Shown: piece after piece, positions 3,306-59,261 of the stretch | Numbering within the stretch: position 1 is the stretch's first letter | How the letters are laid out: every line of letters begins with the position of its first letter | DNA from: Candidatus Nealsonbacteria bacterium | GTDB lineage: Bacteria; Patescibacteriota; Minisyncoccia; Minisyncoccales; JANBVM01 | Length of the DNA stretch: 64,000 nucleotides | Direction: 5' to 3' | Assembly: GCA_026016225.1 (NCBI GenBank) | Contig: CP061210.1 | Coordinates: 194,000-257,999, forward strand | The notes under the pieces: generated by a model | Database searches by the model: none | What the model saw: the letters and a program-made list of their open reading frames with translations, nothing else | What the model was told of the DNA's origin: nothing | Made by a program: the position numbers and the translations under genes

Positions 3306-4871
3306 CTATTTTAGGGATTTTACCACATAGCTATCTCTTAGCTTATATCCAAACTTGCGGTAATATTCACGGGTTCCGACTGCTGAAATTACAGCTATTT
3401 TATTTAACCCAAATTCTTTTTTAGCTATTTCTTCAGCTTTTTTAATTAATTTTTTTCCTAAACCTCTATGTTGAGGAGCCAATTTTCTTTCTGAAATTGG
3501 CACAAGCTGCCCATAAGTATGGATTTCTCTGATAATAGCAGCGTCCTGTAAAACAGGGAGAAAATGCTTCTTTTGGGTTATTCTTAACCTTAATAAACTG
3601 TAGAGTCTTTCTCTTTTTTTATTTTCAAAAGTTAAAAATGTCTCTTTCCCTTCAGAAGCTTCATAATCTTTTCTATATAAATATAATTTTTCCTCTAAAT
3701 TATATTTGTCTTTAATTTCCCTACAGCGAATACATTTGCATTTCCAACCCTCCTTTTTTATCTCTTTTGCAACAACCTGCCTAAGATTTGATATTTTAGC
3801 AGGCCCTGTAATGATTCTTGGTGAAGGAATGTCTCTTATTATTCTTTCTATTCTGACATAATAAGGGATTTTCTTTTTAGCTTGTTTTATAATATCTATT
3901 AAGGTTTTTTCAGAATAAGGTTTGTATTTTCCTTTTAGATACCATTTATAGAGAGGAGCTTCCTTTAAAAGTGCACAAGGATATATTTTTAAAGAATCTG
4001 GTTTAAAATCAGGGTTTTTGAAAAGTTCCTCGAACATTCTTTTATCTTTTTGTGGGTTTGAACCCGGTAGATTAAGCATCATTTGATACGAAATTTTAAA
4101 CCCCGCATCCTTTAAGAGTTTGGTTGCTTTTATAATGGCTTTTACCTTATGTCCTCTCTGGTTTAAATTCAAAACATCATCATAAATACTCTGGATTCCC
4201 ATTTCCACCTTTGTAATTCCTAATCTTCTCATTCTTTTTATTTCTTTTTCATCAATAAAGTCAGGTCTTGTTTCAATGGAAAAACCTATAATTCTATGTT
4301 TTGTTGTTTCGTTTAATTTTTGAGCTTTTTTTAAATTTTTACTTAGTTTCTTATTACAGCCATCAAAACATCTTTTTACAAACCATGTTTGATATTGTTT
4401 AGGATAATAAGACCAGGTTCCTCCAATAATCCTTAAATCTATTTTGTCGGTGGGATGCCCCTGTATTTTTAACATTTCTACTCTTTTTTTTACCTGTAAA
4501 TAAGGATTATAATTTAAATTTTTTGCTCTTTCTACTGCAGGTTCTCCCGACAAATAACTTTTAGGGATACCCTTTTCTTCCGGACAATAAAGACATCTGC
4601 CAGGGCAAGGATAAGGCTTTGTTAGTACTGAAACGTTGATAATTCCAGAAAGAGAACGGACAGGTCTGGTTTTGAGTAAATTTTCAAGGTTATTACTTTT
4701 TTTTATTCTTTTATCTTTTAATAATTCATGATAAGCTTTTAATAACCAGATATTAGTTGGAAAAGGGATTTTATATTTTTTAGAGATATTTCTTTTAAAA
4801 GAAGTTAAATCAGCCCGGGTCCTAATCCGATTCTTTATTATATCTTTAATAATTAATTTTTGGATTTTCAT
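3306..4871 (-). CDS. elp3: Elp3-family radical SAM / GNAT acetyltransferase (tRNA U34 carboxymethylation enzyme homolog)
   Basis: 521 aa. N-terminal radical-SAM cysteine triad CPGRCLYCP. C-terminal GNAT block QHRGLGKKLIKKAEEIA...VISAVGTREYYRKFGY, typical of Elp3 (COG1243). Confidence 0.8.
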   Translation of the reverse strand: MKIQKLIIKDIIKNRIRTRADLTSFKRNISKKYKIPFPTNIWLLKAYHELLKDKRIKKSNNLENLLKTRPVRSLSGIINVSVLTKPYPCPGRCLYCPEEKGIPKSYLSGEPAVERAKNLNYNPYLQVKKRVEMLKIQGHPTDKIDLRIIGGTWSYYPKQYQTWFVKRCFDGCNKKLSKNLKKAQKLNETTKHRIIGFSIETRPDFIDEKEIKRMRRLGITKVEMGIQSIYDDVLNLNQRGHKVKAIIKATKLLKDAGFKISYQMMLNLPGSNPQKDKRMFEELFKNPDFKPDSLKIYPCALLKEAPLYKWYLKGKYKPYSEKTLIDIIKQAKKKIPYYVRIERIIRDIPSPRIITGPAKISNLRQVVAKEIKKEGWKCKCIRCREIKDKYNLEEKLYLYRKDYEASEGKETFLTFENKKRERLYSLLRLRITQKKHFLPVLQDAAIIREIHTYGQLVPISERKLAPQHRGLGKKLIKKAEEIAKKEFGLNKIAVISAVGTREYYRKFGYKLRDSYVVKSLK

Positions 4872-6607: not shown

Positions 6608-6880
6608 ATGTCAGATAAACCACCCATACATGAGGAAGGAGAATTAATAGGGAAAATCACTCATTATTTCAGCAAGATTGAAGTGGCTATTATTGAACTG
6701 TCAGATAATTTAAAAGTAGGTGATAATATTAGGATAATAGGTGGAGAAACAGATTTTGAACAAACGATTGAATCAATAGAAATTGACCACAAAAAAGTTA
6801 AAGCAGCTAAAAAGGGCGAAACCATTGGTTTAAAAGTTGAGCAAAAAGTCAGAGAAGGCTATAAAGTCTATAAAATATAG
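6608..6880 (+). CDS. small EF-Tu-domain-2-like beta-barrel protein
   Basis: 90 aa. GKITHYFSKIEVAIIEL...VGDNIRI...KGETIGLKV resembles translation-factor domain II barrels. Confidence 0.35.
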   Translation: MSDKPPIHEEGELIGKITHYFSKIEVAIIELSDNLKVGDNIRIIGGETDFEQTIESIEIDHKKVKAAKKGETIGLKVEQKVREGYKVYKI

Positions 6881-6996
6881 AGAGGAGTAAAGCTATAAAT
6901 CAATAATTAAAGAGTAAGTATACTCCTAATAGACCAACAATATGATAGAGGTCCAATCTATCTACCAGTTGTTTTTATCTATTTTTTTAAAAAATA

Positions 6997-8289
6997 ATGA
7001 AGTTCATTGCCGATTTCCATTTACATTCAAAATATTCAAGGGCTACTTCCCCAAAGATGGATTTGGAAAATCTTGAGGAATGGGCAAAGATAAAAGGAAT
7101 TAAAGTTTTGGGAACAGGAGATTTCACCCACCCTTTTTGGTTTAAAAACTTAAAAGAGAAATTAGAACCTGCAGAAAGCGGGCTTTTTAAGATTAAGAAC
7201 CACGCTTCGCGGAACCTTGATTCTCGCTCCGCTCGAATTAAAAACAGTAATACCGGGATCCGTTTTATTTTAAGCGCTGAAATTAGTTGTATTTATTCCA
7301 AAGGAGGGAAGGTCCGTAAAATTCATATTGTAGTTTTAGCTCCCTCTTTTGATATTGTTGAAAAAATTAATACCCGTTTGGAAGGAATTGGGAATTTATC
7401 TGCTGACGGAAGACCAATATTAGGATTAGATGCAAAAGAATTGTTAAAAATTGTTTTAAACATCTCAACAGATTGTTTGTTTGTTCCCGCCCATGTAATG
7501 ACTCCCTGGTTTTCTATTTTCGGTTCAAAATCTGGGTTTGATTCAATTGAGGAATGTTTTGAAGATTATTCTAAATATATTTTTGTTTTAGAGACTGGGC
7601 TATCGGCTAACCCACCAATGCTCTGGCGCATACCAGATGCTCAAAAAGCAATTTTAATATCAAATTCAGATGCTCACTCACCAGCTAATATTGGTAGAGA
7701 GGCAAATGTTTTTAATACGGAGATTAGTTATCCTGCTATTGTTGAAGCTATAAAATCAAGAGATTCCGAAAAGTTTCTTTATACCATTGAGTTTTTTCCT
7801 CAGGAAGGAAAGTATCATTACGACGGTCATAGAATGTGCGGTATCAGATTAGCTCCCGAGGAATCGAAAAAATATAACAATATTTGTCCTAACTGCGGCA
7901 GACCCTTAACAATCGGAGTTTTAAATAGGATAGAACAATTATCAGTTGAGCCGAAAGGTTTTAAACTAAAAGGAGCTATTCCTTTTAAAAGCTTAGTTCC
8001 TTTGAGAGAAATAATTGCCGAAGTCTTGGGAATGGGTGTTACTACCAAAGGTGTTGAAAAAGAGTATAAGTCTTTAATTGAGAATTTTGGTAATGAGCTT
8101 GAAATTTTGCTTAATACTTCTCATGATGAGTTAGAGAAAGTTACCTTGCCTGAGACTGCAGAAGGAATAATTAGGGTTAGAGAAGGAAAAGTTTTTGTAG
8201 AACCCGGTTATGATGGGGTTTATGGAAAAGTAAGAATTTTTTCTAAAGGAGAACAAGAGTCTTTATCTAAACAAGGAGTCCTTTTTTAA
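6997..8289 (+). CDS. endoQ: PHP-domain endonuclease Q (EndoQ / TIGR00375)-like protein
   Basis: 430 aa. N-terminal PHP motif DFHLHSKYSRATS, GKYHYDGHRMCG, and zinc finger CPNCGRPLTIGVLNRI. Size and layout match the EndoQ family. Confidence 0.55.
   Translation: MKFIADFHLHSKYSRATSPKMDLENLEEWAKIKGIKVLGTGDFTHPFWFKNLKEKLEPAESGLFKIKNHASRNLDSRSARIKNSNTGIRFILSAEISCIYSKGGKVRKIHIVVLAPSFDIVEKINTRLEGIGNLSADGRPILGLDAKELLKIVLNISTDCLFVPAHVMTPWFSIFGSKSGFDSIEECFEDYSKYIFVLETGLSANPPMLWRIPDAQKAILISNSDAHSPANIGREANVFNTEISYPAIVEAIKSRDSEKFLYTIEFFPQEGKYHYDGHRMCGIRLAPEESKKYNNICPNCGRPLTIGVLNRIEQLSVEPKGFKLKGAIPFKSLVPLREIIAEVLGMGVTTKGVEKEYKSLIENFGNELEILLNTSHDELEKVTLPETAEGIIRVREGKVFVEPGYDGVYGKVRIFSKGEQESLSKQGVLF
7191..7244. 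repeat. GC-rich repeat element inserted in frame in the EndoQ-like gene
   Basis: ATTAAGAACCACGCTTCGCGGAACCTTGATTCTCGCTCCGCTCGAATTAAAAAC. It shares ATTAAGAACCA, GAACCTTGATTC and CTCGCTCCGCTCG with the reverse complement of the 14473-14558 tandem units. Flanked by ATTAAGAAC / ATTAAAAAC. Confidence 0.7.
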
Positions 8290-11409: not shown

Positions 11410-12339
11410 ATGTATCCAAGCTACTTAAATTTATCTAAAGAGGATTTAAATCAGAGGATAGAAAAACTTTTTAAAGTTTTAGAAAATTGTGAGATTTGTC
11501 CAAGGAAATGTTATGTAAATAGGATAAAAGGAGAAAAAGGATATTGTCAATTAGATTTTCTACCAGTAGTTTCTGCTTTTCACCCCCATTTTGGTGAAGA
11601 AAGTCCTTTGGTTGGAAGGTTTGGTCCCGACTCATGGGCGAGTCGAGGCGGGTCTGGAACAATTTTTTTCACTTCTTGTAATCTATCTTGTGTTTACTGC
11701 CAAAATTATGAAATTTCTCAATTAAGAAGAGGAGAAGAAGTTTCTTTTGAAAGATTAGCAAAAATGATGTTAGAACTTCAAAATCGGGGCTGCCACAATA
11801 TTAATTTAGTTACCCCAACTCCTCAGGTTCCCCAGATTTTAAAATCGCTTTCAATAGCAATTAAGCACGGTCTTAAAATTCCTCTTGTTTATAATACCAA
11901 TTCTTATGATTCAATTGAGGTTTTAAAATTATTGGATGGAATTGTCGATATTTATATGCCAGATGTTAAATATTCTGATGATAAGATTGCTTTGAAATAT
12001 TCTAATGCTCCAAAATATTTCGAAATAATGAAAGAGGCTGTTAAAGAGATGCACCGGCAAGTTGGAGATTTGGTTTTAGACGAAGAGGGAATAGCTATAC
12101 GAGGTTTATTAGTCAGGCATTTGGTTTTACCCAATGATTTGGCAGGTTCTGAAAAGATTTTCAATTTTATATCCAAAGAAATTTCAGAAAACACTTTTTT
12201 GAACATTATGGATCAATATAACCCCAATTTTAAAGCGTATCAGTATCCTGAGCTTTCTTGGAGGATTACAGATAAAGAATATCAAATGGCAATAAAATTA
12301 GCCAAAGAAGCAGGCCTTAAAAGGCTTTATAGAAATTAA
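11410..12339 (+). CDS. radical SAM protein, PflX-like (COG1313) activating-enzyme homolog
   Basis: CEICPRKCYVNRIKGEKGYC N-terminal motif and CNLSCVYCQN (CxxxCxxC). ATG 11410 is preferred over the track start at 11386, which lies in the promoter. Confidence 0.7.
   Translation: MYPSYLNLSKEDLNQRIEKLFKVLENCEICPRKCYVNRIKGEKGYCQLDFLPVVSAFHPHFGEESPLVGRFGPDSWASRGGSGTIFFTSCNLSCVYCQNYEISQLRRGEEVSFERLAKMMLELQNRGCHNINLVTPTPQVPQILKSLSIAIKHGLKIPLVYNTNSYDSIEVLKLLDGIVDIYMPDVKYSDDKIALKYSNAPKYFEIMKEAVKEMHRQVGDLVLDEEGIAIRGLLVRHLVLPNDLAGSEKIFNFISKEISENTFLNIMDQYNPNFKAYQYPELSWRITDKEYQMAIKLAKEAGLKRLYRN
11623..11652. repeat. GC-rich hairpin element in frame in the radical SAM gene
   Basis: GGTCCCGACTCATGGGCGAGTCGAGGCGGG. 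Stem CGACTC (11628-11633) / GAGTCG (11640-11645) with a 6-nt loop. Encodes GPDSWASRGG inside the otherwise conserved G-x-GSGTIFF region. Confidence 0.55.
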
Positions 12340-13401: not shown

Positions 13402-14448
13402 TTATTTTGCTGGTAGCCAAACAATCAAATTTTCCTTTGTTTCAAACTTCCCATTAATAAATTTTTCAATTACCCAGATATTAGTTTTACAGTGACTTGT
13501 GATTTCTGAAACTGTAATCTGGGATTTTTTAGGAGATAAGGCTAAGTAGGCTAAAATTTGGTCACCTAAATGTTTATCCAGACAAGCTTTGCTTTTTTCT
13601 TCTTTTAATAATTCCAAAGCTGCTTCTTTACCAACATCTTCTGCTCTTTTTCCCAATTTCCCAAAATTATCAGTTCCAATAATCGTGTTTTCAAATTCGG
13701 CTATTAGAGAAATCTGACTGCCAGGACATTGGGGTTGATAATATTCTACTTTTTCCTCAATAGGCAATTTTAATTTCCCAAAAATTTCTCTTACCCCGGC
13801 AACTTGACGCTCTGCCACTTTTTTATTCCTTAATAATTCTGAAGCCCCGGAAATTACTGAAATTTTTTGAAGTTGACCTCTTTTAATTAAATGGAGTGGT
13901 TTTAATTTCGAAGGATAAATTTTCACCTCAACTTTTGCTCCACCTTCTGGATAGTAGCCTCTTTTTAAAATATTAATTTCTACTTTAACTCCCATTCTTT
14001 CTAATAATTTTAAAAAAACATATTGAAAATAATCAATAGTTGGTGAGAAAAAGGTATCGGTAGCACCACCATTGAAAGTAATTTTTATATATTTGGGAGT
14101 TTGCCCTGGGACTGTCGAATGGGCAAAAATAGAAGGAGGAATTAATGTTTGTAAAAGTAAAGTAATACTTCCTGCTGTTGGAATGTTAATTGAGATATGT
14201 TCTTGATAATTTGAGCCGGGATAGAATTTTATTTCAGTTGACCCTAAATAGTTGCCTTCCAATTTTCCATTACAAAAGTGGGCTAAAGCTTGAAGTCCTA
14301 AAAGATGCTGGTATCTCAAACCGGGCTTTGGTCTTTTTTTTCGAATATTAAAAACACGGCAATTTCTTTTAGTAATTGCTGCTAAAGCAGTTGCCACTCT
14401 CAATATAGCTCCACCGCCTTCATATTTTGAACCATCAAGTTCTAACAT
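13402..14448 (-). CDS. rtcA: RNA 3'-terminal phosphate cyclase
   Basis: 348 aa. MLELDGSKYEGGGAILRVATALAAIT..., RPKPGLRYQHL, and LLQTLIPP...GGATD are characteristic RtcA blocks. Confidence 0.8.
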   Translation of the reverse strand: MLELDGSKYEGGGAILRVATALAAITKRNCRVFNIRKKRPKPGLRYQHLLGLQALAHFCNGKLEGNYLGSTEIKFYPGSNYQEHISINIPTAGSITLLLQTLIPPSIFAHSTVPGQTPKYIKITFNGGATDTFFSPTIDYFQYVFLKLLERMGVKVEINILKRGYYPEGGAKVEVKIYPSKLKPLHLIKRGQLQKISVISGASELLRNKKVAERQVAGVREIFGKLKLPIEEKVEYYQPQCPGSQISLIAEFENTIIGTDNFGKLGKRAEDVGKEAALELLKEEKSKACLDKHLGDQILAYLALSPKKSQITVSEITSHCKTNIWVIEKFINGKFETKENLIVWLPAK

Positions 14449-14472
14449 ATTTCTAATATCTAATTTCCGGAG

Positions 14473-14558
14473 GAATCAAGGTTCTGCCGAGCGGAGCGAG
14501 GCATGGTTCTTAATTCGCAGAATCAAGGTTCTGCCGAGCAGAGCGAGGCAGGTTCTTA
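14473..14558. repeat. two tandem copies of a 47-nt GC-rich unit upstream of rtcA
   Basis: Unit GAATCAAGGTTCTGCCGAGC(G/A)GAGCGAGGCA(T)GGTTCTTA(attcgca). Unit 1 is 14473-14519 and unit 2 is 14520-14558. Each has a CTGCC...GGCAG hairpin flanked by GGTTCT direct repeats. Confidence 0.85.
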
Positions 14559-14612
14559 TATACTATTAGTTAATTTTAAATTAATTTTAAAAAAATAAAA
14601 AGAGAATTTTCT

Positions 14613-14653
14613 TAATTGTAGAACAATTACAAGGAGCGAAGCGACTGGTTTCC
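14613..14653. repeat. partial copy (right half) of the 59192-59261 palindromic element
   Basis: Hairpin TAATTGT-aga-ACAATTA followed by GGAGCGAAGCGACTGGTTTCC. This matches 59242-59261 over 20 nt with one extra T. Confidence 0.7.
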
Positions 14654-14686
14654 TAAAAAGATAATATCTATCGTTAATTGAAAACC

Positions 14687-14714
14687 TTGACAAGAATTCT
14701 CCTTTGGCTATAAT
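14687..14714 (+). promoter_or_regulatory. near-consensus sigma70 promoter
   Basis: TTGACA (14687-14692), 16-nt spacer, TATAAT (14709-14714). Confidence 0.6.
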
Positions 14715-14747
14715 GGAAAAATCCAAAATAGAGAACAAAATTAAAGT

Positions 14748-14900
14748 ATGCAGAAAAATACTAATATTATTGTAATTATAGGAATTGATTTTTTGATACT
14801 AACCGAGGACACTAAAAAGTGTTTGGATTATGGTATTTCCCCTGTTAATTCTAAGGGAGTAAATGAGAGGCTTAGTACGCTAAAGAGAAAACAAAAATAA
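14748..14900 (+). CDS. possible 50-aa small protein (alternatively part of a non-coding transcript)
   Basis: ATG 14748 to TAA 14898-14900. Sequence MQKNTNIIVIIGIDFLILTEDTKKCLDYGISPVNSKGVNERLSTLKRKQK. It lies between a strong promoter and a terminator. No obvious SD. Confidence 0.25.
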   Translation: MQKNTNIIVIIGIDFLILTEDTKKCLDYGISPVNSKGVNERLSTLKRKQK

Positions 14901-14930
14901 TAAATAATAAATAATAATATAGACTACTAG

Positions 14931-14957
14931 ACCTCTCTATAAAAGAGGTTATTTTTA
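14931..14957 (+). terminator. rho-independent terminator
   Basis: ACCTCT-ctataaa-AGAGGT followed by TATTTTTA. Confidence 0.6.
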
Positions 14958-18363: not shown

Positions 18364-18768
18364 ATGAGATTTTCAATTAGTACAAAAGGGTTTACTGATA
18401 TTATTGATATAACCTCAAAGGTTTCTGAGTTTGTGAAAAAATCTGGTGTAAAAGAAGGAATTTGTTTGATATCCTGTCCCGGTTCAACCTGCGGAATAAC
18501 AACTATTGAGTACGAATCAGGGTTGATTGAGGATTTGAAAAGAGTTTTAGAAAAAATTGCGCCAATGTCAAAGGATTACGAACACTGTAAAAAATGGGGA
18601 GATTGCAATGGTTATGCTCATATTCGTTCAGCCTTAATGAAGCCATTTTTAGCTGTCTCTATTGAGGAAGGGAAATTAGTTTTGGGTACGTGGCAAAACC
18701 TCGTTTTTATTGACTTCGATAACAGACCTAGAGAGCGGAAGGTGATAATTAAAATTATTGCGGGATAA
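18364..18768 (+). CDS. yjbQ: YjbQ-family (UPF0047, secondary thiamine-phosphate synthase) protein
   Basis: 134 aa. DITSKV..., CPGSTCGITTIEYE and GYAHIRSALM...GTWQ blocks are characteristic of YjbQ. Confidence 0.7.
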   Translation: MRFSISTKGFTDIIDITSKVSEFVKKSGVKEGICLISCPGSTCGITTIEYESGLIEDLKRVLEKIAPMSKDYEHCKKWGDCNGYAHIRSALMKPFLAVSIEEGKLVLGTWQNLVFIDFDNRPRERKVIIKIIAG

Positions 18769-19897
18769 GTTGATATTTAAATCGCGAACCTTTCTTATAC
18801 TTTTTAACTTTATTTTGTTTCATTAACATTTGTAAATGATGGTAAACTGTCCATAAATTTATATTAGCTATTTCCCGTAACTCAAAAGCAGTTTTAGATT
18901 CCGCTTTTAAAGCGTTTAATATTATTCTTTTGGTTTCAAATTTCTTCCTTTGTTTCCAACTCCTGTGTTTGAATTTTATTATATTACCAATCTCGTTTAA
19001 TTTTCTTCCGATGCCTAAGTTAGGATATTTAAAAATTAATTCATTGCAGCCTTGAAAGAATTTTTCTACAGATTCATAACTTAATAATAATGAGTAATGT
19101 TCTCTTGTCATTTTACCTCTCCATTTGAAAGTAGAAATACTACATTTATATCCCAGCGATTCAACTATATTTCTCAAATCCATAATGAATTTTTTATTAG
19201 AAGATAGAAACCTTACACTCCCAGAGACATTTCCATCATCGTGCAAAAACGCTAGCAAAGTTGCAATTTTATTTTCTTTATCTCCTTTTAGTACCTTGGG
19301 AGGAATTCTACATTTAGCACTTAGATAGGTGGGAATATTGAAATAGTTTGTTACGATAACTGAAAATATAGCTGGAAAATAATGCGCTCTTTTATATTTT
19401 TTAATTCTATATTTCCCGAAAACATTAGAAGTTATTTTTTCAAATCTTTTCAAGCCACTTTCTTCTTTTTGGTAATATATAAAATTATTTCTATTAATAC
19501 ATCCATCGCACATCATATGAATTGCAATAGACGTGAACTCGGGTGTAATCTTTATCGGTAACTGTGGTCTGAAAATATAAAGTCTTCCATAAGTAGAAAC
19601 ATAACCCTGTATGTTTCTTTCAACTTCTAATAGTGTGACCTTTATCTTCTTTGAAATCTCATATATAGCCCATGCTGGGATATACTTTGCTTTTTTATGG
19701 TATTGCCATACAATTCTATAGTCAGTGGTAATATTTTTGTTATATAATTTTGATTTCCTCTGTAAAAATAAAGCTAATTTCTTCACGGATTTGAAATCTT
19801 TCTTGGTTTTTTCAAAAAACTTTTCTTTAAAATCTGAATTTAACTTAATAGACATTAAATAAAGCGGAAATTGCCACCAATGAATACTTTTCTGCAT
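18755..19897 (-). CDS. free-standing double-motif LAGLIDADG homing-endonuclease-like protein with a C-terminal winged-helix domain
   Basis: 380 aa. Motif 1 is SIAIHMMCDGCI (Asp131) and motif 2 is LLAFLHDDGNVSG (Asp220/221), about 90 aa apart. The C-terminal ELREIANINLWTVYHHLQMLMKQNKV is HTH-like. The 3' end overlaps yjbQ by 14 nt. Confidence 0.6.
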   Translation of the reverse strand: MQKSIHWWQFPLYLMSIKLNSDFKEKFFEKTKKDFKSVKKLALFLQRKSKLYNKNITTDYRIVWQYHKKAKYIPAWAIYEISKKIKVTLLEVERNIQGYVSTYGRLYIFRPQLPIKITPEFTSIAIHMMCDGCINRNNFIYYQKEESGLKRFEKITSNVFGKYRIKKYKRAHYFPAIFSVIVTNYFNIPTYLSAKCRIPPKVLKGDKENKIATLLAFLHDDGNVSGSVRFLSSNKKFIMDLRNIVESLGYKCSISTFKWRGKMTREHYSLLLSYESVEKFFQGCNELIFKYPNLGIGRKLNEIGNIIKFKHRSWKQRKKFETKRIILNALKAESKTAFELREIANINLWTVYHHLQMLMKQNKVKKYKKGSRFKYQLIPQ

Positions 19898-27413: not shown

Positions 27414-30400
27414 ATGAAAATTAATTTTCCAAAAACAGAAAAAAGAGTTCTGAAGTTTTGGAAAAAAAACAAAATATTTGGGAAAAGTTTAAAAAAGAGA
27501 AAAAATAGGCCAAGATTTGTTTTTTATGAAGGCCCACCTTATGCCAACGGTAGACCTGGTATTCATCATCTTTTAGCTCGTGCTTTTAAAGACATTATCT
27601 GTCGTTATAAAACCATGCAGGGATTTTTTGTTGCAAGAAAGGCTGGTTGGGATACTCATGGTTTACCTACTGAAATAGAAGCTGAGAAAAAATTAGGAAT
27701 TAAGAGTAAAAAAGAAATTAAGAAATTAGGTATTGAGAAGTTTATTAAAGAATGTAAAAGAAACGTTTTTACTTATAAAAAAGAATGGGAAGAATTTACT
27801 GAAAGAATTGGATATTGGCTTGATTTAAAAAATGCCTATATTACCTGTAGTAATAATTATATTGAATCAATCTGGTGGATTTTAAAAGAAGTTTATAAAA
27901 AAGGACTTTTATACCAAGACTTTAAAGTTGTTCATTATTGTCCAAGATGTGGAACTTCTCTTTCCACTCATGAGGTAGCTCAGGGCTACAAAAAAATAAA
28001 AGAACCTTCAATTTTCATAAAACTGAGGATAAAAAATTTAGAATTTAAGGGTTCTTACCTGTTGGTCTGGACAACAACACCCTGGACATTGCCGGGTAAT
28101 GTAGCTGTTGCTGTAAATCCTAATTTTACTTATGCAAAAGTAAAGATTGGTAATGAGTACTTAATATTAGCCAAAGACAGAATTTCAGCTTCTGGCATAA
28201 AAGGGGAGATTGTAGAAGAATTTAAAGGAAAGGATTTGATTGATTTAAGATATGAGGGTCTATATCCGATAGATTATGAGACTTCAAAGAATGCCTACAG
28301 AGTAATTTTAGGAGATTTCGTTTCTTTAGAAGAAGGGACAGGATTAGTTCATTTAGCTCCTGCTTTTGGAGAAGAAGACATGGAAGTGATTAGAACTCAG
28401 AATAAAAAACATAAAACTAAAAATATTCCTGAAATTCCGATTTTGTTAACAATTAACGAAGAAGGGAGATTTAATCTTAACGTTAAAAAATGGGCCGGAA
28501 TGTATTTTAAGGATGCCGACCCTTTAATAATTGAAGACTTAAAACAAAAAAACCTTTTATTCAAAGAGGAATTATGTGAACATGATTATCCTTTTTGTTG
28601 GAGATGCAAAAACCCTTTACTTTATTATGCAAAAAAGAGCTGGTTCATTAAGATGAAGAGAGTTAAGCAGGATTTAATTAAAAACAATAAAAAAATTAAT
28701 TGGGTTCCAGCTTATTTAAAAGAAGGCAGATTCGGAGAGTGGTTGAGAGAAGTTAAAGATTGGGCACTTTCTCGGGAAAGATATTGGGGGACTCCTTTAC
28801 CTGTTTGGAAATGCAAAACCTGTCTAAATTCAGAAGTTATAGGCGGTAAACAAGACCTTTTGAAACAAAAATTTAGTACCAATAAATATCTTATTTTACG
28901 GCATGGAGAAACAATTTATGTAGAAGGACTTAAAGAAATAATTTATTCTAAATCAGATAATTCTTCGCTTGGTTTAACGAAAAAAGGAAAAAAACAAATA
29001 AACACTTTAGCTAAAAAACTCAAAAAATCCAAGATTGATTTAATTTTTTCTTCAGATTATTTAAGGACAAGAAAAACTGCAGATATTATTGCTAAAGAAC
29101 TCGGTCTTAAAGTAAATTTTGATAGAAGATTGAGAGATATAAATTTAGGGATTTATAAAGGAAAAAGAAAAGAAGAACTTTATAAAGCTTTTTTAAACAT
29201 AAAAGAAAGGTTTTACAAAAAACCAAAAAACGGAGAAGATTGGTTGAGTTGCAGGAGAAGGATGATTAGTTTCATAAAAGAAATTGATAGAAAATATCAA
29301 AATCAAACCATTTTAATTATTAGCCATGGAGACCCCTTATGGATTTTGGAAGGAACTCTTAGGGGATTATCTCAGGAAGAATTTGTTAAACAAAAAATTC
29401 AGAAAAAAACAATAAAACCAGGAGAGCTAAGAAGAATCAGATTTAATTTATTGCCTCTTAACAAAAAAGGAGAATTTGATTTTCACAGGCCTTATATTGA
29501 TGAAGTGAAGTTTTCCTGCCAAAGATGTGGGGGTTTGATGGAAAGAGTTCCTGAACTAATTGATTGTTGGTTTGATTCAGGCTCAATGCCTTTTGCCCAA
29601 TACCACTATCCTTTTGAAAATAAAAAGATTATTGACCAAAGAAAGCAGTTTCCGGCAGATTTTATTTCAGAAGGAGTGGACCAGACCAGGGGTTGGTTTT
29701 ATACTCTACTTGCAATTTCTACTTTAGTTGGGAAAGGTCCAAGTTATAAAAATGTTGTTTCTTTAGGACATATTTTAGATGAAAAGGGTGAAAAAATGTC
29801 GAAATCAAAAGGAAATGTGGTTAACCCCTGGTATATTGCTGAAAAATATGGCGTAGATGCTGTCCGTTGGTACTTTTATACTGTCAATCAGCCAGGTGAT
29901 TCAAAATTATTTTCAGAAAAAGATGTACAAGAGCGTCTAAAAAAATTTATTATGAATTTCTGGAATTGTTTTTGTTTTTTCACAACATATATTCCTGTAA
30001 ACTATTCCCCGTTCTCTAATAGAAAAAGAAGCTTACCAAAAAGCAAAAACATTTTAGATAAGTGGATTATATCTAAGTTAAACAAACTAATTTTAGATAC
30101 AACAAAATTATTAGATAAATACGATATTACAGCTGCTGCTCGTTTACTTGAAAACTTTGTCGTTAATAATCTGTCTTTATGGTACATAAGAAGGTCAAGA
30201 AAAAGATTTCAAAGACCGGAAACAAAGAGAGAGTTAAAAGAAGCTTCCCAAACTTTGGGTTTTGTGCTTTTAACTTTAACTAAATTAACAGCTCCCTTTA
30301 TTCCTTTTTTGAGTGAAGCAATTTATCAAAAGGTTCAAGATTCAAGATTCAAGATTCAAGGTTTTAAAAGTGTTCATTTAGAAGACTGGCCGAAGATAGA

Positions 30401-30923
30401 AAAGAAAAAGATTAATAAAAAATTGAATAAAAAAATGGAAGAAGTTAGAAAGATAGTAGGTTTAGCTTTAGCTGAAAGAGTAAAGGCTGGTTTGAAAGTG
30501 AAACAACCTTTACAAGAATTAAAAATTAAGAATCAAGATTTAAGGAAAGAAAAAGAATTATTAGAACTGATTAAAGAAGAAGTTAATGTTAAGAAAATCA
30601 CCTTTGGTAAAACTTTAAAATTAGATACAAAAATTAGTCCTGAGTTAAAAAAAGAAGGTATCTTAAGAGAAGTTATTAGAAATTTGCAGCAAATGAGAAA
30701 AGAAGCCAGCTGTACTCCAAAAGATATTATCCTAATTCAGTTTAAGGGAGAAGAAAAGATTACTCGATTTTTATTAAAAAATAGAGAAGAAATTATTAGA
30801 AAAACAAAAGCAAAAGATTTGATAGAAAGTAAAAAAAGAAAATTTAAAATGGAAAAAGAGCTTGATATTGAGGGAGAAAAGTTAAAGTTATCTATTAAGA
30901 AAATTAGAAGGGCAAAAGTTTAA
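27414..30923 (+). CDS. ileS: isoleucyl-tRNA synthetase (type 2) with an inserted histidine-phosphatase domain
   Basis: 1169-aa uninterrupted ORF. PPYANGRPGIHHLLAR, the editing domain (WTTTPWTLPGN), KMSKSKGN, and zinc knuckles CKTC / CQRCGG. Residues ~491-685 carry His_Phos_1-type motifs (LRHGET, SSDYLRTRKTA, ISHGD). Confidence 0.9.
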   Translation: MKINFPKTEKRVLKFWKKNKIFGKSLKKRKNRPRFVFYEGPPYANGRPGIHHLLARAFKDIICRYKTMQGFFVARKAGWDTHGLPTEIEAEKKLGIKSKKEIKKLGIEKFIKECKRNVFTYKKEWEEFTERIGYWLDLKNAYITCSNNYIESIWWILKEVYKKGLLYQDFKVVHYCPRCGTSLSTHEVAQGYKKIKEPSIFIKLRIKNLEFKGSYLLVWTTTPWTLPGNVAVAVNPNFTYAKVKIGNEYLILAKDRISASGIKGEIVEEFKGKDLIDLRYEGLYPIDYETSKNAYRVILGDFVSLEEGTGLVHLAPAFGEEDMEVIRTQNKKHKTKNIPEIPILLTINEEGRFNLNVKKWAGMYFKDADPLIIEDLKQKNLLFKEELCEHDYPFCWRCKNPLLYYAKKSWFIKMKRVKQDLIKNNKKINWVPAYLKEGRFGEWLREVKDWALSRERYWGTPLPVWKCKTCLNSEVIGGKQDLLKQKFSTNKYLILRHGETIYVEGLKEIIYSKSDNSSLGLTKKGKKQINTLAKKLKKSKIDLIFSSDYLRTRKTADIIAKELGLKVNFDRRLRDINLGIYKGKRKEELYKAFLNIKERFYKKPKNGEDWLSCRRRMISFIKEIDRKYQNQTILIISHGDPLWILEGTLRGLSQEEFVKQKIQKKTIKPGELRRIRFNLLPLNKKGEFDFHRPYIDEVKFSCQRCGGLMERVPELIDCWFDSGSMPFAQYHYPFENKKIIDQRKQFPADFISEGVDQTRGWFYTLLAISTLVGKGPSYKNVVSLGHILDEKGEKMSKSKGNVVNPWYIAEKYGVDAVRWYFYTVNQPGDSKLFSEKDVQERLKKFIMNFWNCFCFFTTYIPVNYSPFSNRKRSLPKSKNILDKWIISKLNKLILDTTKLLDKYDITAAARLLENFVVNNLSLWYIRRSRKRFQRPETKRELKEASQTLGFVLLTLTKLTAPFIPFLSEAIYQKVQDSRFKIQGFKSVHLEDWPKIEKKKINKKLNKKMEEVRKIVGLALAERVKAGLKVKQPLQELKIKNQDLRKEKELLELIKEEVNVKKITFGKTLKLDTKISPELKKEGILREVIRNLQQMRKEASCTPKDIILIQFKGEEKITRFLLKNREEIIRKTKAKDLIESKKRKFKMEKELDIEGEKLKLSIKKIRRAKV
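30334..30361. repeat. heptanucleotide microsatellite inside ileS
   Basis: TTCAAGA x3 followed by TTCAAGG, preceded by AAGGTTC. Encodes VQDSRFKIQGFK. Confidence 0.8.
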
Positions 30924-39399: not shown

Positions 39400-40236
39400 A
39401 TGTTAATTGATACCCACGCCCATTTGAATTTTAAAGCTTTTGAAAAAGACAGAAAAAAAGTAATCAAACGATGTTTAAAAAATGATGTTTGGGTGATAAA
39501 TGTCGGAACTAATTTTGAAACTTCAAAAAAAGCAGTAGAAATTGCCAAAAGTTCTGAAAAAGGAATTTTTGCTGCAATTGGTCTTCATCCTATAAACTTA
39601 GATACAGGATTGGTAAAGAGAAAGATTGATAAATTAGAGGGAGAAAGCTTTGAAAAAGAGTTTGATTACGAAAGCTACAAACGGTTAGCTGGTTTTGAAA
39701 AAGTGATAGCTATTGGTGAAGTTGGCTTAGATTATTATTGGAAACCAAAAACTACCAGAAAAAAAGAATTGTTTAAGCAAAAACAAAAAGAGCTTCTTTT
39801 AAAAGAATTGAGTCTGGCAAAAGAATTAAATCTACCTGTAATCTTTCACTGCCGGATGGCTCATCAGGATTTGATTGAATTTTTATTAGAAAATCCAATG
39901 GTAAGGCCTAAAAAAGCTGTAGCTCACAGCTTTGTTGGAGGTTTAAATGAGCTTGAAAACTTTTTGAATTTCGGCTTTTATATTGGATTTACTGGGATAA
40001 TCTTCAAAAAGATAGAGGGAATAAATTTTGAAAAAAATATTAAAAATACTCCTTTAGATAAGCTCTTGATTGAGACAGATTGTCCTTATTTGGTACCGGC
40101 TGGGCTGGAAGCTGAACGTAACGAACCAATTTTTGTAAAATATATTGCAAAAGCTATAGCTGATATAAAAAAAGTGAGTCTTGATAGGCTCGCTGAAATT
40201 ACAACAGAAAACGCAAGAAAACTTTTTAATATATAA
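39400..40236 (+). CDS. tatD: TatD-family metal-dependent hydrolase/DNase
   Basis: MLIDTHAHLNF, GEVGLDYY, IFHCR and ETDCPYL motifs. Confidence 0.85.
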   Translation: MLIDTHAHLNFKAFEKDRKKVIKRCLKNDVWVINVGTNFETSKKAVEIAKSSEKGIFAAIGLHPINLDTGLVKRKIDKLEGESFEKEFDYESYKRLAGFEKVIAIGEVGLDYYWKPKTTRKKELFKQKQKELLLKELSLAKELNLPVIFHCRMAHQDLIEFLLENPMVRPKKAVAHSFVGGLNELENFLNFGFYIGFTGIIFKKIEGINFEKNIKNTPLDKLLIETDCPYLVPAGLEAERNEPIFVKYIAKAIADIKKVSLDRLAEITTENARKLFNI

Positions 40237-59166: not shown

Positions 59167-59191
59167 ACTTTTTTAATTGAGAAACAATTAC

Positions 59192-59261
59192 GGAACCAGT
59201 CGGGGCTATGCCCCTCCTTGTCATTGCTTCGCAATGAATGAGGAGCGAAGCGACTGGTTCC
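59192..59261. repeat. 70-nt GC-rich palindromic (three-way-junction) element
   Basis: Perfect 11-bp terminal inverted repeats GGAACCAGTCG / CGACTGGTTCC enclose the hairpins GGGC-tat-GCCC and CTCCT..CATTGC-ttc-GCAATG..AGGAG. Confidence 0.8.

Follow-up and report, generated by a model that had tools for sequence, protein, structure and literature searches.

The window analysed here, the whole stretch of 64,000 nucleotides from a Candidatus Nealsonbacteria genome, contains a gene of the endonuclease Q (EndoQ) family in which a short GC-rich segment lies in frame. The locus raises the question of what this segment is and how it came to lie in a conserved gene. The EndoQ protein was identical (100%) to P0001, named ‘endonuclease Q family protein, Candidatus Nealsonbacteria’, and matched the crystal-structure sequence of PfuEndoQ (5zb8) with E = 4e-51. 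Positions 7192-7245 read ATTAAGAACC-A-CGCTTCGCG-GAACCTTGATTC-TCGCTCCGCTCGA-ATTAAAAAC, in frame in the ORF, and are translated as KIKNHASRNLDSRSARIKN. The nearest orthologues, P0002-P0009 (77-80% identity), had 415 aa compared to 430 aa in the window, with a gap exactly at the segment, and the Pyrococcus EndoQ (5zb8) showed a 19-residue gap at the same position. An earlier note on this DNA had proposed an insertion of whole codons without a stop, to be checked by the absence of the added residues from orthologues, and the alignment bore this out: the insert measured exactly 45 nt and its 15 extra residues fall within NHASRNLDSRSARIK. Because ATTAA is repeated at both borders, the insert can be placed in two equivalent ways. 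The positions of all features are collected in Table 1.

Table 1. Position and strand of the EndoQ insert, its modules and the related units upstream of rtcA in the window.
Feature	Position	Strand	Evidence
Host gene, endonuclease Q (EndoQ) family protein, 430 aa	6997..8289	+	P0001 and PfuEndoQ matches
EndoQ insert, 45 nt = 15 codons	7197..7241 (equivalently 7192-7236)	+	Gapped in orthologues
A box AAGAACC; with the preceding T, TAAGAACC	7195..7201	+	Model R1 match
Hairpin slot ACGCTTCGCG, core CGC-TTC-GCG; atypically short for the family	7202..7211	+	
B box GAACCTTGATTC, read N-L-D-S	7212..7223	+	
Linker module TCGCTCCGCTC = TCGCT-NN-GCTC motif	7224..7234	+	
Partial second A box GAATTAAAAAC = right border, holds the second ATTAA/TAA	7235..7245	+	Single AATTAAAAAA in the empty site
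rtcA (RNA 3'-phosphate cyclase), downstream of the tandem units	13402..14448	-	L004 orthologue PF01137/PF05189
rtcA-proximal unit GAATTAAGAACC-A-TGCCTCGCTCCGCTCGGCA-GAACCTTGATTC	14473..14516	-	Model R1, E = 1e-7
rtcA-distal unit TATAAGAACC-TGCCTCGCTCTGCTCGGCA-GAACCTTGATTC, then linker TGC	14520..14562	-	Model R1, E = 3e-9

The site was then found in both states among relatives. The syntenic relative L004 carries the empty site AAAATTAA|AAAAAATAAC; the insert was missing in L004 and L005 (AAAATTAA|AAAAAAT) and present in L001-L003. The window and L001 copies were identical at 46/50 nt (92%), compared to 72% in the remainder of the gene. In the EndoQ tree, the window sequence was nested among empty-site orthologues. 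Nearly all of the ~110 orthologues examined across the tree were without the insert, including 6/6 relatives in the window's own clade. Among 80 further EndoQ loci from JGI the element was found in none, and 70/70 readable loci had no insert. No metagenome sequence matched the exact empty allele of the window strain (CTTTTTAAGATTAAAAACAGTAATACC) when this was scanned for. These results show that the EndoQ insert is a secondary gain, acquired after the lineage split from its nearest sequenced relatives. The earlier note had held that the same residues conserved in unrelated orthologues would speak against an insertion. P0011, from a distant EndoQ clade, carries the same element at the same codon. 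The copy in P0011 needs a second insertion or a short-patch transfer.

The element landed at the TAA of ATTAAAAAA, which by alignment to 5zb8 belongs to a turn connecting two PHP-domain strands. A structure prediction of EndoQ from a 31-sequence alignment had a mean pLDDT of 46 and was unusable for mapping the loop or its surface exposure. The loop is hypervariable: at the insert codon, orthologues show heptamers in tandem or palindromes of unrelated sequence. ATTAA/TAA occurs once in the empty EndoQ site (L004) and twice in the filled site of the window; likewise, TAA at ribosomal protein L18 occurs once in the empty L116 and twice in the filled L076. With n = 2 clean empty/filled pairs (the others were too diverged), the border repeat is compatible with the target duplication suspected earlier, and it could be microhomology instead.

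The relationship of the insert to the tandem units upstream of rtcA, which the earlier note had claimed, was confirmed. The reverse complement of 14473-14562 contains two units, 47 nt apart, that share the 11-mer, the 12-mer and the 13-mer (14488-14500) of the EndoQ insert in the opposite orientation, and the A box, the B box and the linker are common to both loci. A covariance model (R1) was built from 21 copies in other genomes and none from the window. In the window, R1 recognised three sites, the two tandem units and the EndoQ insert (E = 1.5e-7), and the next match had E = 0.2. The B-box string had three exact occurrences in the window, all in these three units, compared to 0.48 expected from shuffles allowing one mismatch. 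The proximal unit has the orientation of rtcA, and its B box ends 24 nt ahead of the rtcA ATG. The hairpin slot of the distal unit is identical to that of copies in L014 and L061, and the syntenic intergenic region of L004 has no distal unit.

Further copies were found in numbers: a scan gave at least 120 loci of the family, and about 85% of those listed were in CPR MAGs. The family occurs widely among CPR genomes of the Nealsonbacteria/Paceibacteria type, and ~590 kb of loci chosen regardless of the element contained 13 matches. Each unit, 45-66 bp long, consists of (T)AAGAACC, a variable GC hairpin, GAACCTTGATTC, a linker and GAATTAA. The EndoQ segment probably represents a single period of the short form, which lacks the promoter. 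The A box is invariant in the family alignment A2 because the scan required it. Between the two boxes, the slot held 95 different GC hairpins across the family, with 96% of cells paired, and compensatory double changes numbered 25 compared to 6.9 in shuffles. The TCGCT-NN-GCTC motif of the EndoQ linker occupies the hairpin slot in other copies, and the EndoQ linker together with GAATTAAAAA is also found in the L18 insert of L076. Moreover, subfamilies with identical hairpins are common to different species-level genomes.

The conserved palindromy of the family is a short central hairpin of 3-9 bp. An imperfect inverted repeat, GAATTAAG/CTTGATTC, lies within the unit on either side of this hairpin, and the insert borders TAA|GAACC... 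and ...GAAT|TAA have no complementarity and form no terminal inverted repeats. As palindromes, the window copies were poor: DNA folding was no better than that of shuffles for the EndoQ insert (z +0.4 to +0.8) and for the tandem units (z about 0). Two matches in viral contigs were rejected as chance, having about 50% GC, no hairpin and no family flanks; no other family copy was found in viral contigs. A CRISPR-array reading of the 60-66-nt tandem arrays was also rejected, as what recurs in L071 and L114 is the entire period together with the ‘spacer’, which is the conserved promoter segment. Rfam found only the tmRNA and two tRNAs in the whole window at the gathering threshold, and its E-value mode gave no family match in 14400-14720 or in the long-form array of L071. 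Literature on palindromic elements, MITEs and RPEs in CPR, Patescibacteria, Parcubacteria and Nealsonbacteria, and on the B-box string, gave no description of the family. In agreement with the earlier note, the family is apparently undescribed.

In the long form of the unit, GCTAAGGTATAAATATATAATCTT takes the place of the linker and yields TTGATT-N16/17-TATAAT, the -35-like hexamer TTGATT being contained in the B box. An ATG-led ORF of at least 80 aa started 8-38 nt after the -10 element in 21/51 terminal units (41%); random positions gave 6.6%, and TATAAT sites outside the family 10%. In L172, a family unit is present in four successive intergenic spacers, the last of them directly ahead of its EndoQ gene. 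A -35/-10 pair of the sigma-70 type before gene starts, its 16/17-nt spacing falling within the 16-18 nt expected of such promoters, was present in other genomes and absent from the three window copies. An nhmmer profile found no long, promoter-bearing copy in the window, and a promoter scan of 14473-14562 found none either. The promoter role is drawn entirely from the sequences of other genomes. The long form is a putative portable intergenic cassette, combining a hairpin with a predicted promoter for leaderless or short-leader mRNAs, and the short forms would be its promoter-less derivatives. Furthermore, arrays began on the TAA stop codon of the upstream ORF in 20/100 cases, compared to 2.3% of control TAAG sites (~nine-fold).

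The short form was found in frame in ten unrelated conserved, Pfam-confirmed genes, always co-oriented with the gene: those of TatD, TGT, a MurF-like ligase, a histidine kinase, a HemK-like methyltransferase, a MinD-like ATPase, ribosomal protein L18, a Xer-like integrase, GvpL/F and EndoQ. Besides EndoQ, four of these copies are gaps in orthologues from other loci (five with EndoQ), the window's own TatD being one of the orthologues without the insert. All in-gene copies terminate in GAATTAAA-like sequence. The family is small, non-coding, multi-copy and polymorphic for presence and absence at orthologous sites, traits that it shares with MITEs. Only one frame of the element is free of stops, since the TAA at its left end and the TGA in the B box close the others. 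With the element in this frame and comprising whole codons, EndoQ stays open and gains 15 hydrophilic residues.

Taken jointly, the EndoQ segment is probably a short-form period of a dispersed, modular CPR repeat family, gained at a TAA and kept as a tolerated passenger. The insert would then have no function of its own. The family may have spread by a process that is specific to one strand and attaches the element at TAA; our preferred guess is an enzyme supplied in trans that acts on a hairpinned single strand. Selection would then retain a copy only where it lies at a stop codon, in an intergenic region or in frame in a tolerant loop. Several observations count against this explanation. The element has no terminal inverted repeats, the Pfam scan found no transposase, integrase or HUH (Y1) gene among the ~58 window ORFs, and no autonomous parent element was seen. 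In addition, the window copies fold no better than shuffles, and P0011 shares the element at the same codon.

The same family could also have reached EndoQ without transposition, either through microhomology-mediated template switching or through gene conversion of short patches. At an A-box-like site, a nascent strand whose end reads ATTAA(A/G)AA would switch to a short-form array elsewhere, copy one period of it and return. The insert is indeed exactly one circularly permuted array period (TAA|GAACC...GATTC-linker-GAAT|TAA) and is not bounded by its inverted repeats. The targets in EndoQ (AATTAAAAAA), L18 (GATAAAAAAA) and TGT (ATTAGAAC) are A-box-like, and the ancestral EndoQ loop AAATTAAAAAATTCTGATTC looks like fused A and B boxes. 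The near-identical inserts at the same codon in two non-sister lineages, the missing terminal repeats and the lack of a transposase in the window point the same way. However, the exact placement of 20% of arrays on TAA stops, about nine-fold over control, speaks against template switching, as do the identical-hairpin subfamilies in different species-level genomes. Moreover, an active site-specific process accounts more easily for entry into at least ten unrelated genes of many genomes with strict co-orientation. We regard template switching as possible but rather unlikely.

It is improbable that the 15 residues, or an in-gene RNA or DNA hairpin, form a selected functional module, whether a regulatory site, a binding site for an RNase or another protein, or a useful peptide. 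N-L-D-S is the reading of the B box in 10/10 in-gene copies, all of them co-oriented, the insert is far better conserved than the remaining gene between the window and L001, and the A and B boxes are kept across species, all of which would suit such a module. But the single frame follows, as reasoned from the sequences, from the stops in the other frames; these leave one open frame per hairpin-length class, and the N-L-D-S frame was rejected as evidence of peptide selection. Furthermore, the host genes are functionally unrelated, most EndoQ orthologues, the nearest included, do without the insert, and the same EndoQ loop takes unrelated inserts and heptamer expansions.

An insert ancestral to the EndoQ clade and precisely deleted in P0002-P0009 would explain why the distant P0011 is filled at the same codon. 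This history is very improbable, as it meets the empty sites of nearly all ~110 orthologues, including the window's clade, the readable JGI loci and Pyrococcus, and an insert that is much less diverged than the gene. Local slippage or quasi-palindrome mutagenesis in the loop, with a coincidental or locally copied likeness to the rtcA units, could draw on the heptamer repeats and unrelated palindromes at this codon, but it was effectively refuted by the family matches in other genomes, with the same A box, B box and linker in L18, TatD, TGT and others, by the recognition of the insert by a model from other genomes, and by a 12-mer count far above chance.

The repeat family reading can be carried further, to a self-propagating cassette of Nealsonbacteria/Paceibacteria-type CPR that leads from a stop codon to the next start, delivers promoters and has a loop-colonising derivative; as a whole we consider this extension unlikely. 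In it, a mobile unit of 60-66 nt would integrate at TAA, stop codons included, through a hairpinned single-stranded intermediate and an enzyme, and would supply a hairpin and a leaderless-mRNA promoter to the next gene. A derivative without the promoter would settle in surface loops of housekeeping proteins, L18 among them, and the same machinery would have produced the many other GC-rich in-frame palindromes of these genomes. If this holds, a large share of the promoters in these minimal genomes would be copies of one mobile element.

The earlier note had likened the insert to Rickettsia palindromic elements. RPE-1 to RPE-10 (Ogata et al., summarised in PMC10969869) are long palindromes of ~100-150 bp that can fold into a stable hairpin, encode 30-50 residues and belong to one alphaproteobacterial genus. 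The likeness stood for behaviour: both are short dispersed repeats, intergenic and in frame in unrelated conserved genes, that add a peptide and leave the gene unbroken, have no known transposase and occur in small genomes of host-dependent bacteria. Several defining features of RPEs were not shared. The CPR family has units of 45-66 bp that are modular, often tandem and promoter-bearing in the long form, its window copy is barely palindromic, its hosts are CPR, and no sequence relationship was seen, the RPEs being compared by description. The CPR family is a case of RPE-like behaviour in a new phylum, not a member of the RPEs.

Correia elements are about 100-155 bp long, with 26-bp terminal inverted repeats and a duplicated TA. 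In Neisseria, these elements (CREE/NEMIS) are abundant upstream of genes, carry sigma-70-type promoters and have hairpin potential, and their length is given as 204 bp (PMC10969869). The CPR family resembles them as small repeats just upstream of genes, with sigma-70-type promoters (here predicted) and hairpin potential, but differs in its missing terminal inverted repeats, its TAA/ATTAA border and its units of 45-66 bp. REPs lie outside genes, carry a GTAG-type head and are found in genomes with a RAYT gene, whose IS200/IS605-like HUH transposase mobilises them. REPs, BIMEs and REPINs share with the CPR family imperfect palindromes of ~35 nt, stems that vary by compensatory change beside a conserved short head, arrays with defined linkers, and strand asymmetry. 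In contrast to REPs, CPR copies occur within genes and have AAGAACC and GAACCTTGATTC as their conserved boxes, and the window gave no HUH match. The TTC/GAA triloops, which correspond to a GCGAAGC-type DNA mini-hairpin on the complementary strand, would be in keeping with a mechanism that uses a single-strand hairpin.

The BOX modules of S. pneumoniae (boxA, repeated boxB, boxC) measure 45-59 bp each. We know of no BOX copies as in-frame inserts in housekeeping genes or as promoters of leaderless genes. A variable middle module between conserved ends, tandem modules and hairpin potential are common to BOX and the CPR family (partly PMC10969869), but the two have no sequence similarity. Putative mobile promoters are near-identical promoter segments reused before unrelated genes, both in one genome and across genomes; the concept comes from similarity searches of upstream regions and specifies no element structure (PMC3488235). 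By contrast, the CPR promoter would be part of a structured repeat with a hairpin, adjoining stop codons, and the family has a promoter-less derivative that enters coding regions.

CPR/Patescibacteria have tiny, streamlined genomes, and since most of these organisms are uncultured, almost nothing is known of their regulatory sequences. The family offers a testable, clade-wide promoter model with a conserved -35/-10 pair and gene starts 8-38 nt downstream, a distance that implies leaderless or near-leaderless mRNAs. The in-frame entry of repeats, famous from RPEs, extends to a deeply divergent phylum and even to L18 and TGT. The family also explains odd inserts of 15-20 residues of the KNL...NLDS...IK type in otherwise conserved CPR proteins, which can disturb alignments, phylogenies and structure prediction, and the presence or absence of inserts may serve as markers for strain typing. 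Furthermore, an element that is associated with TAA, has GAA/TTC triloop hairpins and lacks terminal inverted repeats gives a lead to an uncharacterised mobilisation system.

The window also contains other GC-rich hairpins, at 11623, 14100, 21861, 56598, 3229, 14613 and 59192, which had been grouped with the EndoQ insert earlier. None of them matched model R1, and they were rejected as family members. Those at 11623 and 14100 are genuine lineage-specific in-frame inserts outside the family. The pair at 14613 and 59192 forms a second, separate repeat. When second-family motifs (AACCAG...CTGGTT, GAGCGAAGCGACTGG) were searched in 970 kb of other CPR loci, the only match besides the window copies was the EndoQ insert of L007.

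The window (G+C 32%), which contains a bacterial-type tmRNA, comes from Candidatus Nealsonbacteria of the CPR/Patescibacteria, and the product of ORF 6997..8289 was 100% identical to 'endonuclease Q family protein [Candidatus Nealsonbacteria bacterium]'. The sequence given in the earlier note for the repeat in this EndoQ gene (7192-7245) was exact and in frame. The reverse complement of 14473-14562, upstream of rtcA, held two units 47 nt apart carrying the 11-mer, 12-mer and 13-mer of the EndoQ insert. The copies consist of an A box (AAGAACC) and a B box (GAACCTTGATTC) separated by a variable GC hairpin. GAACCTTGATTC occurred three times in the window, always within these copies; with one mismatch allowed, shuffles gave 0.48 matches.

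Bacteria and archaea, with one genome per species, were scanned for AAGAACC-N8-22-GAACCTTGATTC, which yielded at least 151 matches in at least 120 loci. About 15 of the matched loci listed were chance hits: they had no hairpin, and either their record titles pointed outside the CPR or their flanks were GC-rich. The other loci listed belonged to Nealsonbacteria, Paceibacteria, Minisyncoccales, Parcubacteria or unclassified CPR MAGs. In nearly every case the slot separating the two boxes was a GC hairpin (95 different sequences among the matches listed), with a loop that was mostly TTC, or GAA on the opposite strand. Among the matches listed, 61% of slots could form an outer stem of 3 bp or more, versus 5% of shuffles. 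Within the 13-nt slot class, 96% of cells were paired, compared with 30-50% when the partners were slid, and double-sided changes numbered 25 versus 6.9 in shuffles. These results showed that the hairpin is under structural constraint. A covariance model built from 21 copies, excluding those of the window, recovered all three window sites (E = 3e-9, 1e-7 and 1.5e-7; next match E = 0.2), so that the proposed homology of the EndoQ insert and the units upstream of rtcA was borne out and all three are family members. Applied to ~590 kb of loci picked solely for EndoQ, the model found 13 copies, confined to 5 of 80 loci. The family thus has a patchy distribution, at a density of about one copy per 20-45 kb where it occurs. 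It was not found in IMG/VR viral contigs, and no Rfam entry matched.

The EndoQ segment proved to be a secondary insertion. The closest orthologues (P0002-P0009, 77-80% identity) have 415 aa versus 430 aa, and their gap falls exactly at the insert. In Pyrococcus furiosus EndoQ (5zb8), 19 residues are missing at this point, between ...TFEV and NGVKFIL.... In the syntenic relative L004, with the same gene order (EndoQ, DUF2229 twice, BcrAD, radical SAM, rtcA), the empty site is TTTTTAAAATTAA followed directly by AAAAAATAAC, versus TTTTTAAGATTAA(GAACC...CTCGAATTAA)AAACAGT in the window, which gives an insert of 45 nt. ATTAA is single in the empty site and stands at both borders of the filled one. 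The tandem units upstream of rtcA are also missing from L004. In a neighbour-joining tree the window EndoQ was nested among six empty-site orthologues, and among 80 further metagenome EndoQ loci the element was present in 0 of the 70 with a readable loop. At the same codon, a distant orthologue, P0011 (L001-L003, three different samples), carries the same element, identical to that of the window at 46 of 50 nt, with 72% identity over the remaining gene. The two copies arose by two separate gains or by short-patch transfer; relative to the EndoQ gene, the insert is either of more recent origin or under tighter constraint. We infer that EndoQ carries its copy as a neutral passenger. An MgtC-family gene lies between a 90-aa ORF and EndoQ in L001, L002 and L004; it is absent from the window (6880-6997), where this gap is only 116 nt.

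The family was also shown to be associated with TAA. Among the matches listed, in 20 of 100 arrays or single copies the TAA with which the element begins (T/AAGAACC) also serves as the stop codon ending an upstream ORF of 80 aa or more, compared with 2.3% of control TAAG sites. When a same-strand ORF ended within 200 nt, it ended exactly at the element's TAA in 21 of 28 cases, and six family units spanned the entire spacer between a stop codon and the next ATG. Moreover, ten copies among the matches listed lay inside long open frames, all co-oriented with the host gene. Pfam assigned the hosts as EndoQ, TatD DNase, tRNA-guanine transglycosylase (TGT), Mur ligase, histidine kinase, HemK-like methyltransferase, MinD/ParA-like ATPase, ribosomal protein L18, Xer-like integrase and GvpL/F. 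For TatD, TGT, Mur ligase and L18, orthologues in other loci were gapped at the element, the window's own TatD (39400..40236) among them. The L18 pair is clean: the site is GATAAAAAAACA when empty and GATAA(GAACC...CGAATTAA)AAAAACA when filled; in L18 and EndoQ alike, TAA occurs once in the empty and twice in the filled site. The element is evidently tolerated in many proteins. The inserted peptides read KN...KNLDS...IK or IRT...QNLDS.... Their constant N-L-D-S frame is due to the element's own stops: TAA (left end) closes one frame and TGA (B box) another, which leaves exactly one open frame per hairpin-length class. The frame is not taken as a sign of peptide selection.

A long form, AAGAACC-hairpin-GAACCTTGATTC-GCTAAGGTATAAATATATAATCTTGAATTAAG, made up 68 of the matches listed and holds TTGATT and TATAAT with a 16-17-nt spacer. 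Identical 60-66-nt units form arrays in L071, L114 and L116, and a promoter scanner found one TTGATT/TATAAT-type site per unit of the L071 array. In 21 of 51 terminal units among the matches listed, an ATG-initiated ORF of 80 aa or more started within 8-38 nt after the -10, compared with 6.6% at random positions and 10% at other TATAAT sites. In L172, each of four successive intergenic spacers has one unit, the last directly before EndoQ. The promoter-like sequence is correctly positioned before genes, and judged from sequence the long form would function as a promoter cassette. In the short form, the type in the window, a short linker (e.g. TGC, CTTCG, TCGCTTCGCTC) takes the place of the 24-nt promoter segment; short-form units measure 41-51 nt, single or tandem, and presumably derive from the long form, of which none was found in the window. 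ATG followed TATAAT by 8-14 nt in long-form units of L010, L011, L031, L034, L047, L066, L091, L114 and others, which implies that many genes of these CPR genomes may have leaderless mRNAs without Shine-Dalgarno sequences. GC palindromes with GCGAAGC cores were nested in long-form units of L172 (~3800-3850) and L137 (6697-6761), one within the -35/-10 spacer and the other enlarging the hairpin slot; they hint at a separate general process inserting or generating mini-hairpins.

Terminal inverted repeats were absent from the insert borders. The insert corresponds to a circularly permuted period of an array, TAA/GAACC...GATTC-linker-GAAT/TAA, and the target sites resemble the A box. Genes for a transposase, an integrase or a HUH enzyme are absent from the window. 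We favour an enzyme that would act on a hairpinned single strand and join the element at TAA, because the element meets stop codons precisely, keeps a strict orientation and has GAA/TTC triloops; the likelihood of this reading is somewhat short of even. Spread of copies from arrays via microhomology-mediated template switching is rather unlikely. An IS605 OrfB/TnpB-type gene lies ~6 kb from EndoQ in a Nealsonbacteria contig (L006, 17156-18286), and IS200/IS605-family elements therefore exist in the clade. The only window ORF that hinted at a homing-endonuclease-like fold (18758-19897, minus strand, 380 aa) had weak, sub-threshold matches to LAGLIDADG_3 and ArsR-type HTH.

Among known systems, the resemblance to Rickettsia palindromic elements (RPE) noted earlier holds for the in-frame copies, here in ten genes, but not for RPE size and palindromy. 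Correia elements or 'mobile promoters' are nearest in behaviour for promoter-bearing copies, as are REP/BIME or BOX for modular hairpin arrays and RPE for in-frame copies (PMC10969869, PMC3488235). However, the family lacks the TIRs of MITEs and Correia elements, and the head motif and extragenic location of REPs. No description of the family from CPR bacteria turned up in the literature, searched also with the B-box string, or in a 2024 review of prokaryotic MITEs, in agreement with the earlier statement that no equivalent was known for such genomes. The A/B-box repeat is classed here as a new family within an already known type of element; the original observation was confirmed and its interpretation was essentially right.

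The other hairpins regarded as related fared differently: none matched the family model, and those at 11623 and 14100 were in-frame inserts. Both are GC-rich, hairpin-forming and lineage-specific, and unrelated to the A/B-box family. The PolX segment coincides with ~10-aa gaps of Thermus PolX (3au2) and the topoisomerase I segment with a 14-aa gap in 6ozw, both homologues with solved structures; the two segments are probably further in-frame inserts.

Other inserts and repeats in the window and in EndoQ loops of other loci
Feature	Coordinates	Strand	Description
Insert in radical SAM gene	11623-11649	+	+9 aa GPDSWASRG; absent from L004
Insert in rtcA (RtcA)	14101-14127	-	+9 aa FAHSTVPGQ; absent from L004
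PolX segment	21844-21908	+	AAATTCA heptamer repeats either side of hairpin CCTACGGGGAGTCGTAGG
Topoisomerase I segment	56571-56618	-	ATCCTTCGGCTTCGCTCAGGAT plus Lys/Gln-rich stretch
Second repeat, full copy	59181-59261	+	81-nt multi-hairpin palindrome between pth and lepB
Second repeat, truncated copy	14621-14653	+	Shares GAACAATTAC, AGGAGCGAAGCGACTGGTT; ~30 nt upstream of perfect promoter
EndoQ loop expansion, L006	10195-10235
EndoQ loop expansion, L007	1975-2050
EndoQ loop expansions, L008	1150-1215; 1725-1760

The second repeat is different from, and unrelated to, the A/B-box family. Its full copy reads GGAACCAGTCG...CGACTGGTTCC with inner hairpins GGGGCTATGCCCC and CATTGCTTCGCAATG, its DNA folds far better than shuffles (z -5.8 and -6.5), and a search of 970 kb of other CPR loci did not recover it. 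The EndoQ loop codon is a hot spot across orthologues: unrelated GC palindromes lie there in L006, L007 and L176, and 7-nt tandem repeats in L008, L143, L158, L191, L193 and L208, with GAAATTC, CAAATTC, GCAACAA, GGCAAAA and AAATCTC in three copies each in different lineages. Short GC-rich in-frame insertions are therefore a general trait of these genomes, and a dispersed repeat is demonstrated for the AAGAACC/GAACCTTGATTC family only. The L007 loop insert has the architecture of the 81-nt palindrome (AACCAG, two hairpins, CTGGTT), and the common ancestral EndoQ loop DNA, AAATTAAAAAATTCTGATTC, looks like fused A and B boxes.

In addition, a perfect TTGACA-16-TATAAT promoter (14687-14714), a 50-codon ORF (14748-14900) and an intrinsic terminator (14930-14950) lie upstream of a greA-like gene. 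The layout in L004 is alike with a different small ORF, and the set could encode a small protein or an sRNA. In the isoleucyl-tRNA synthetase (27414-30923, plus strand, 1169 aa), the class I catalytic domain is interrupted by an inserted histidine-phosphatase domain (His_Phos_1, residues 493-664).
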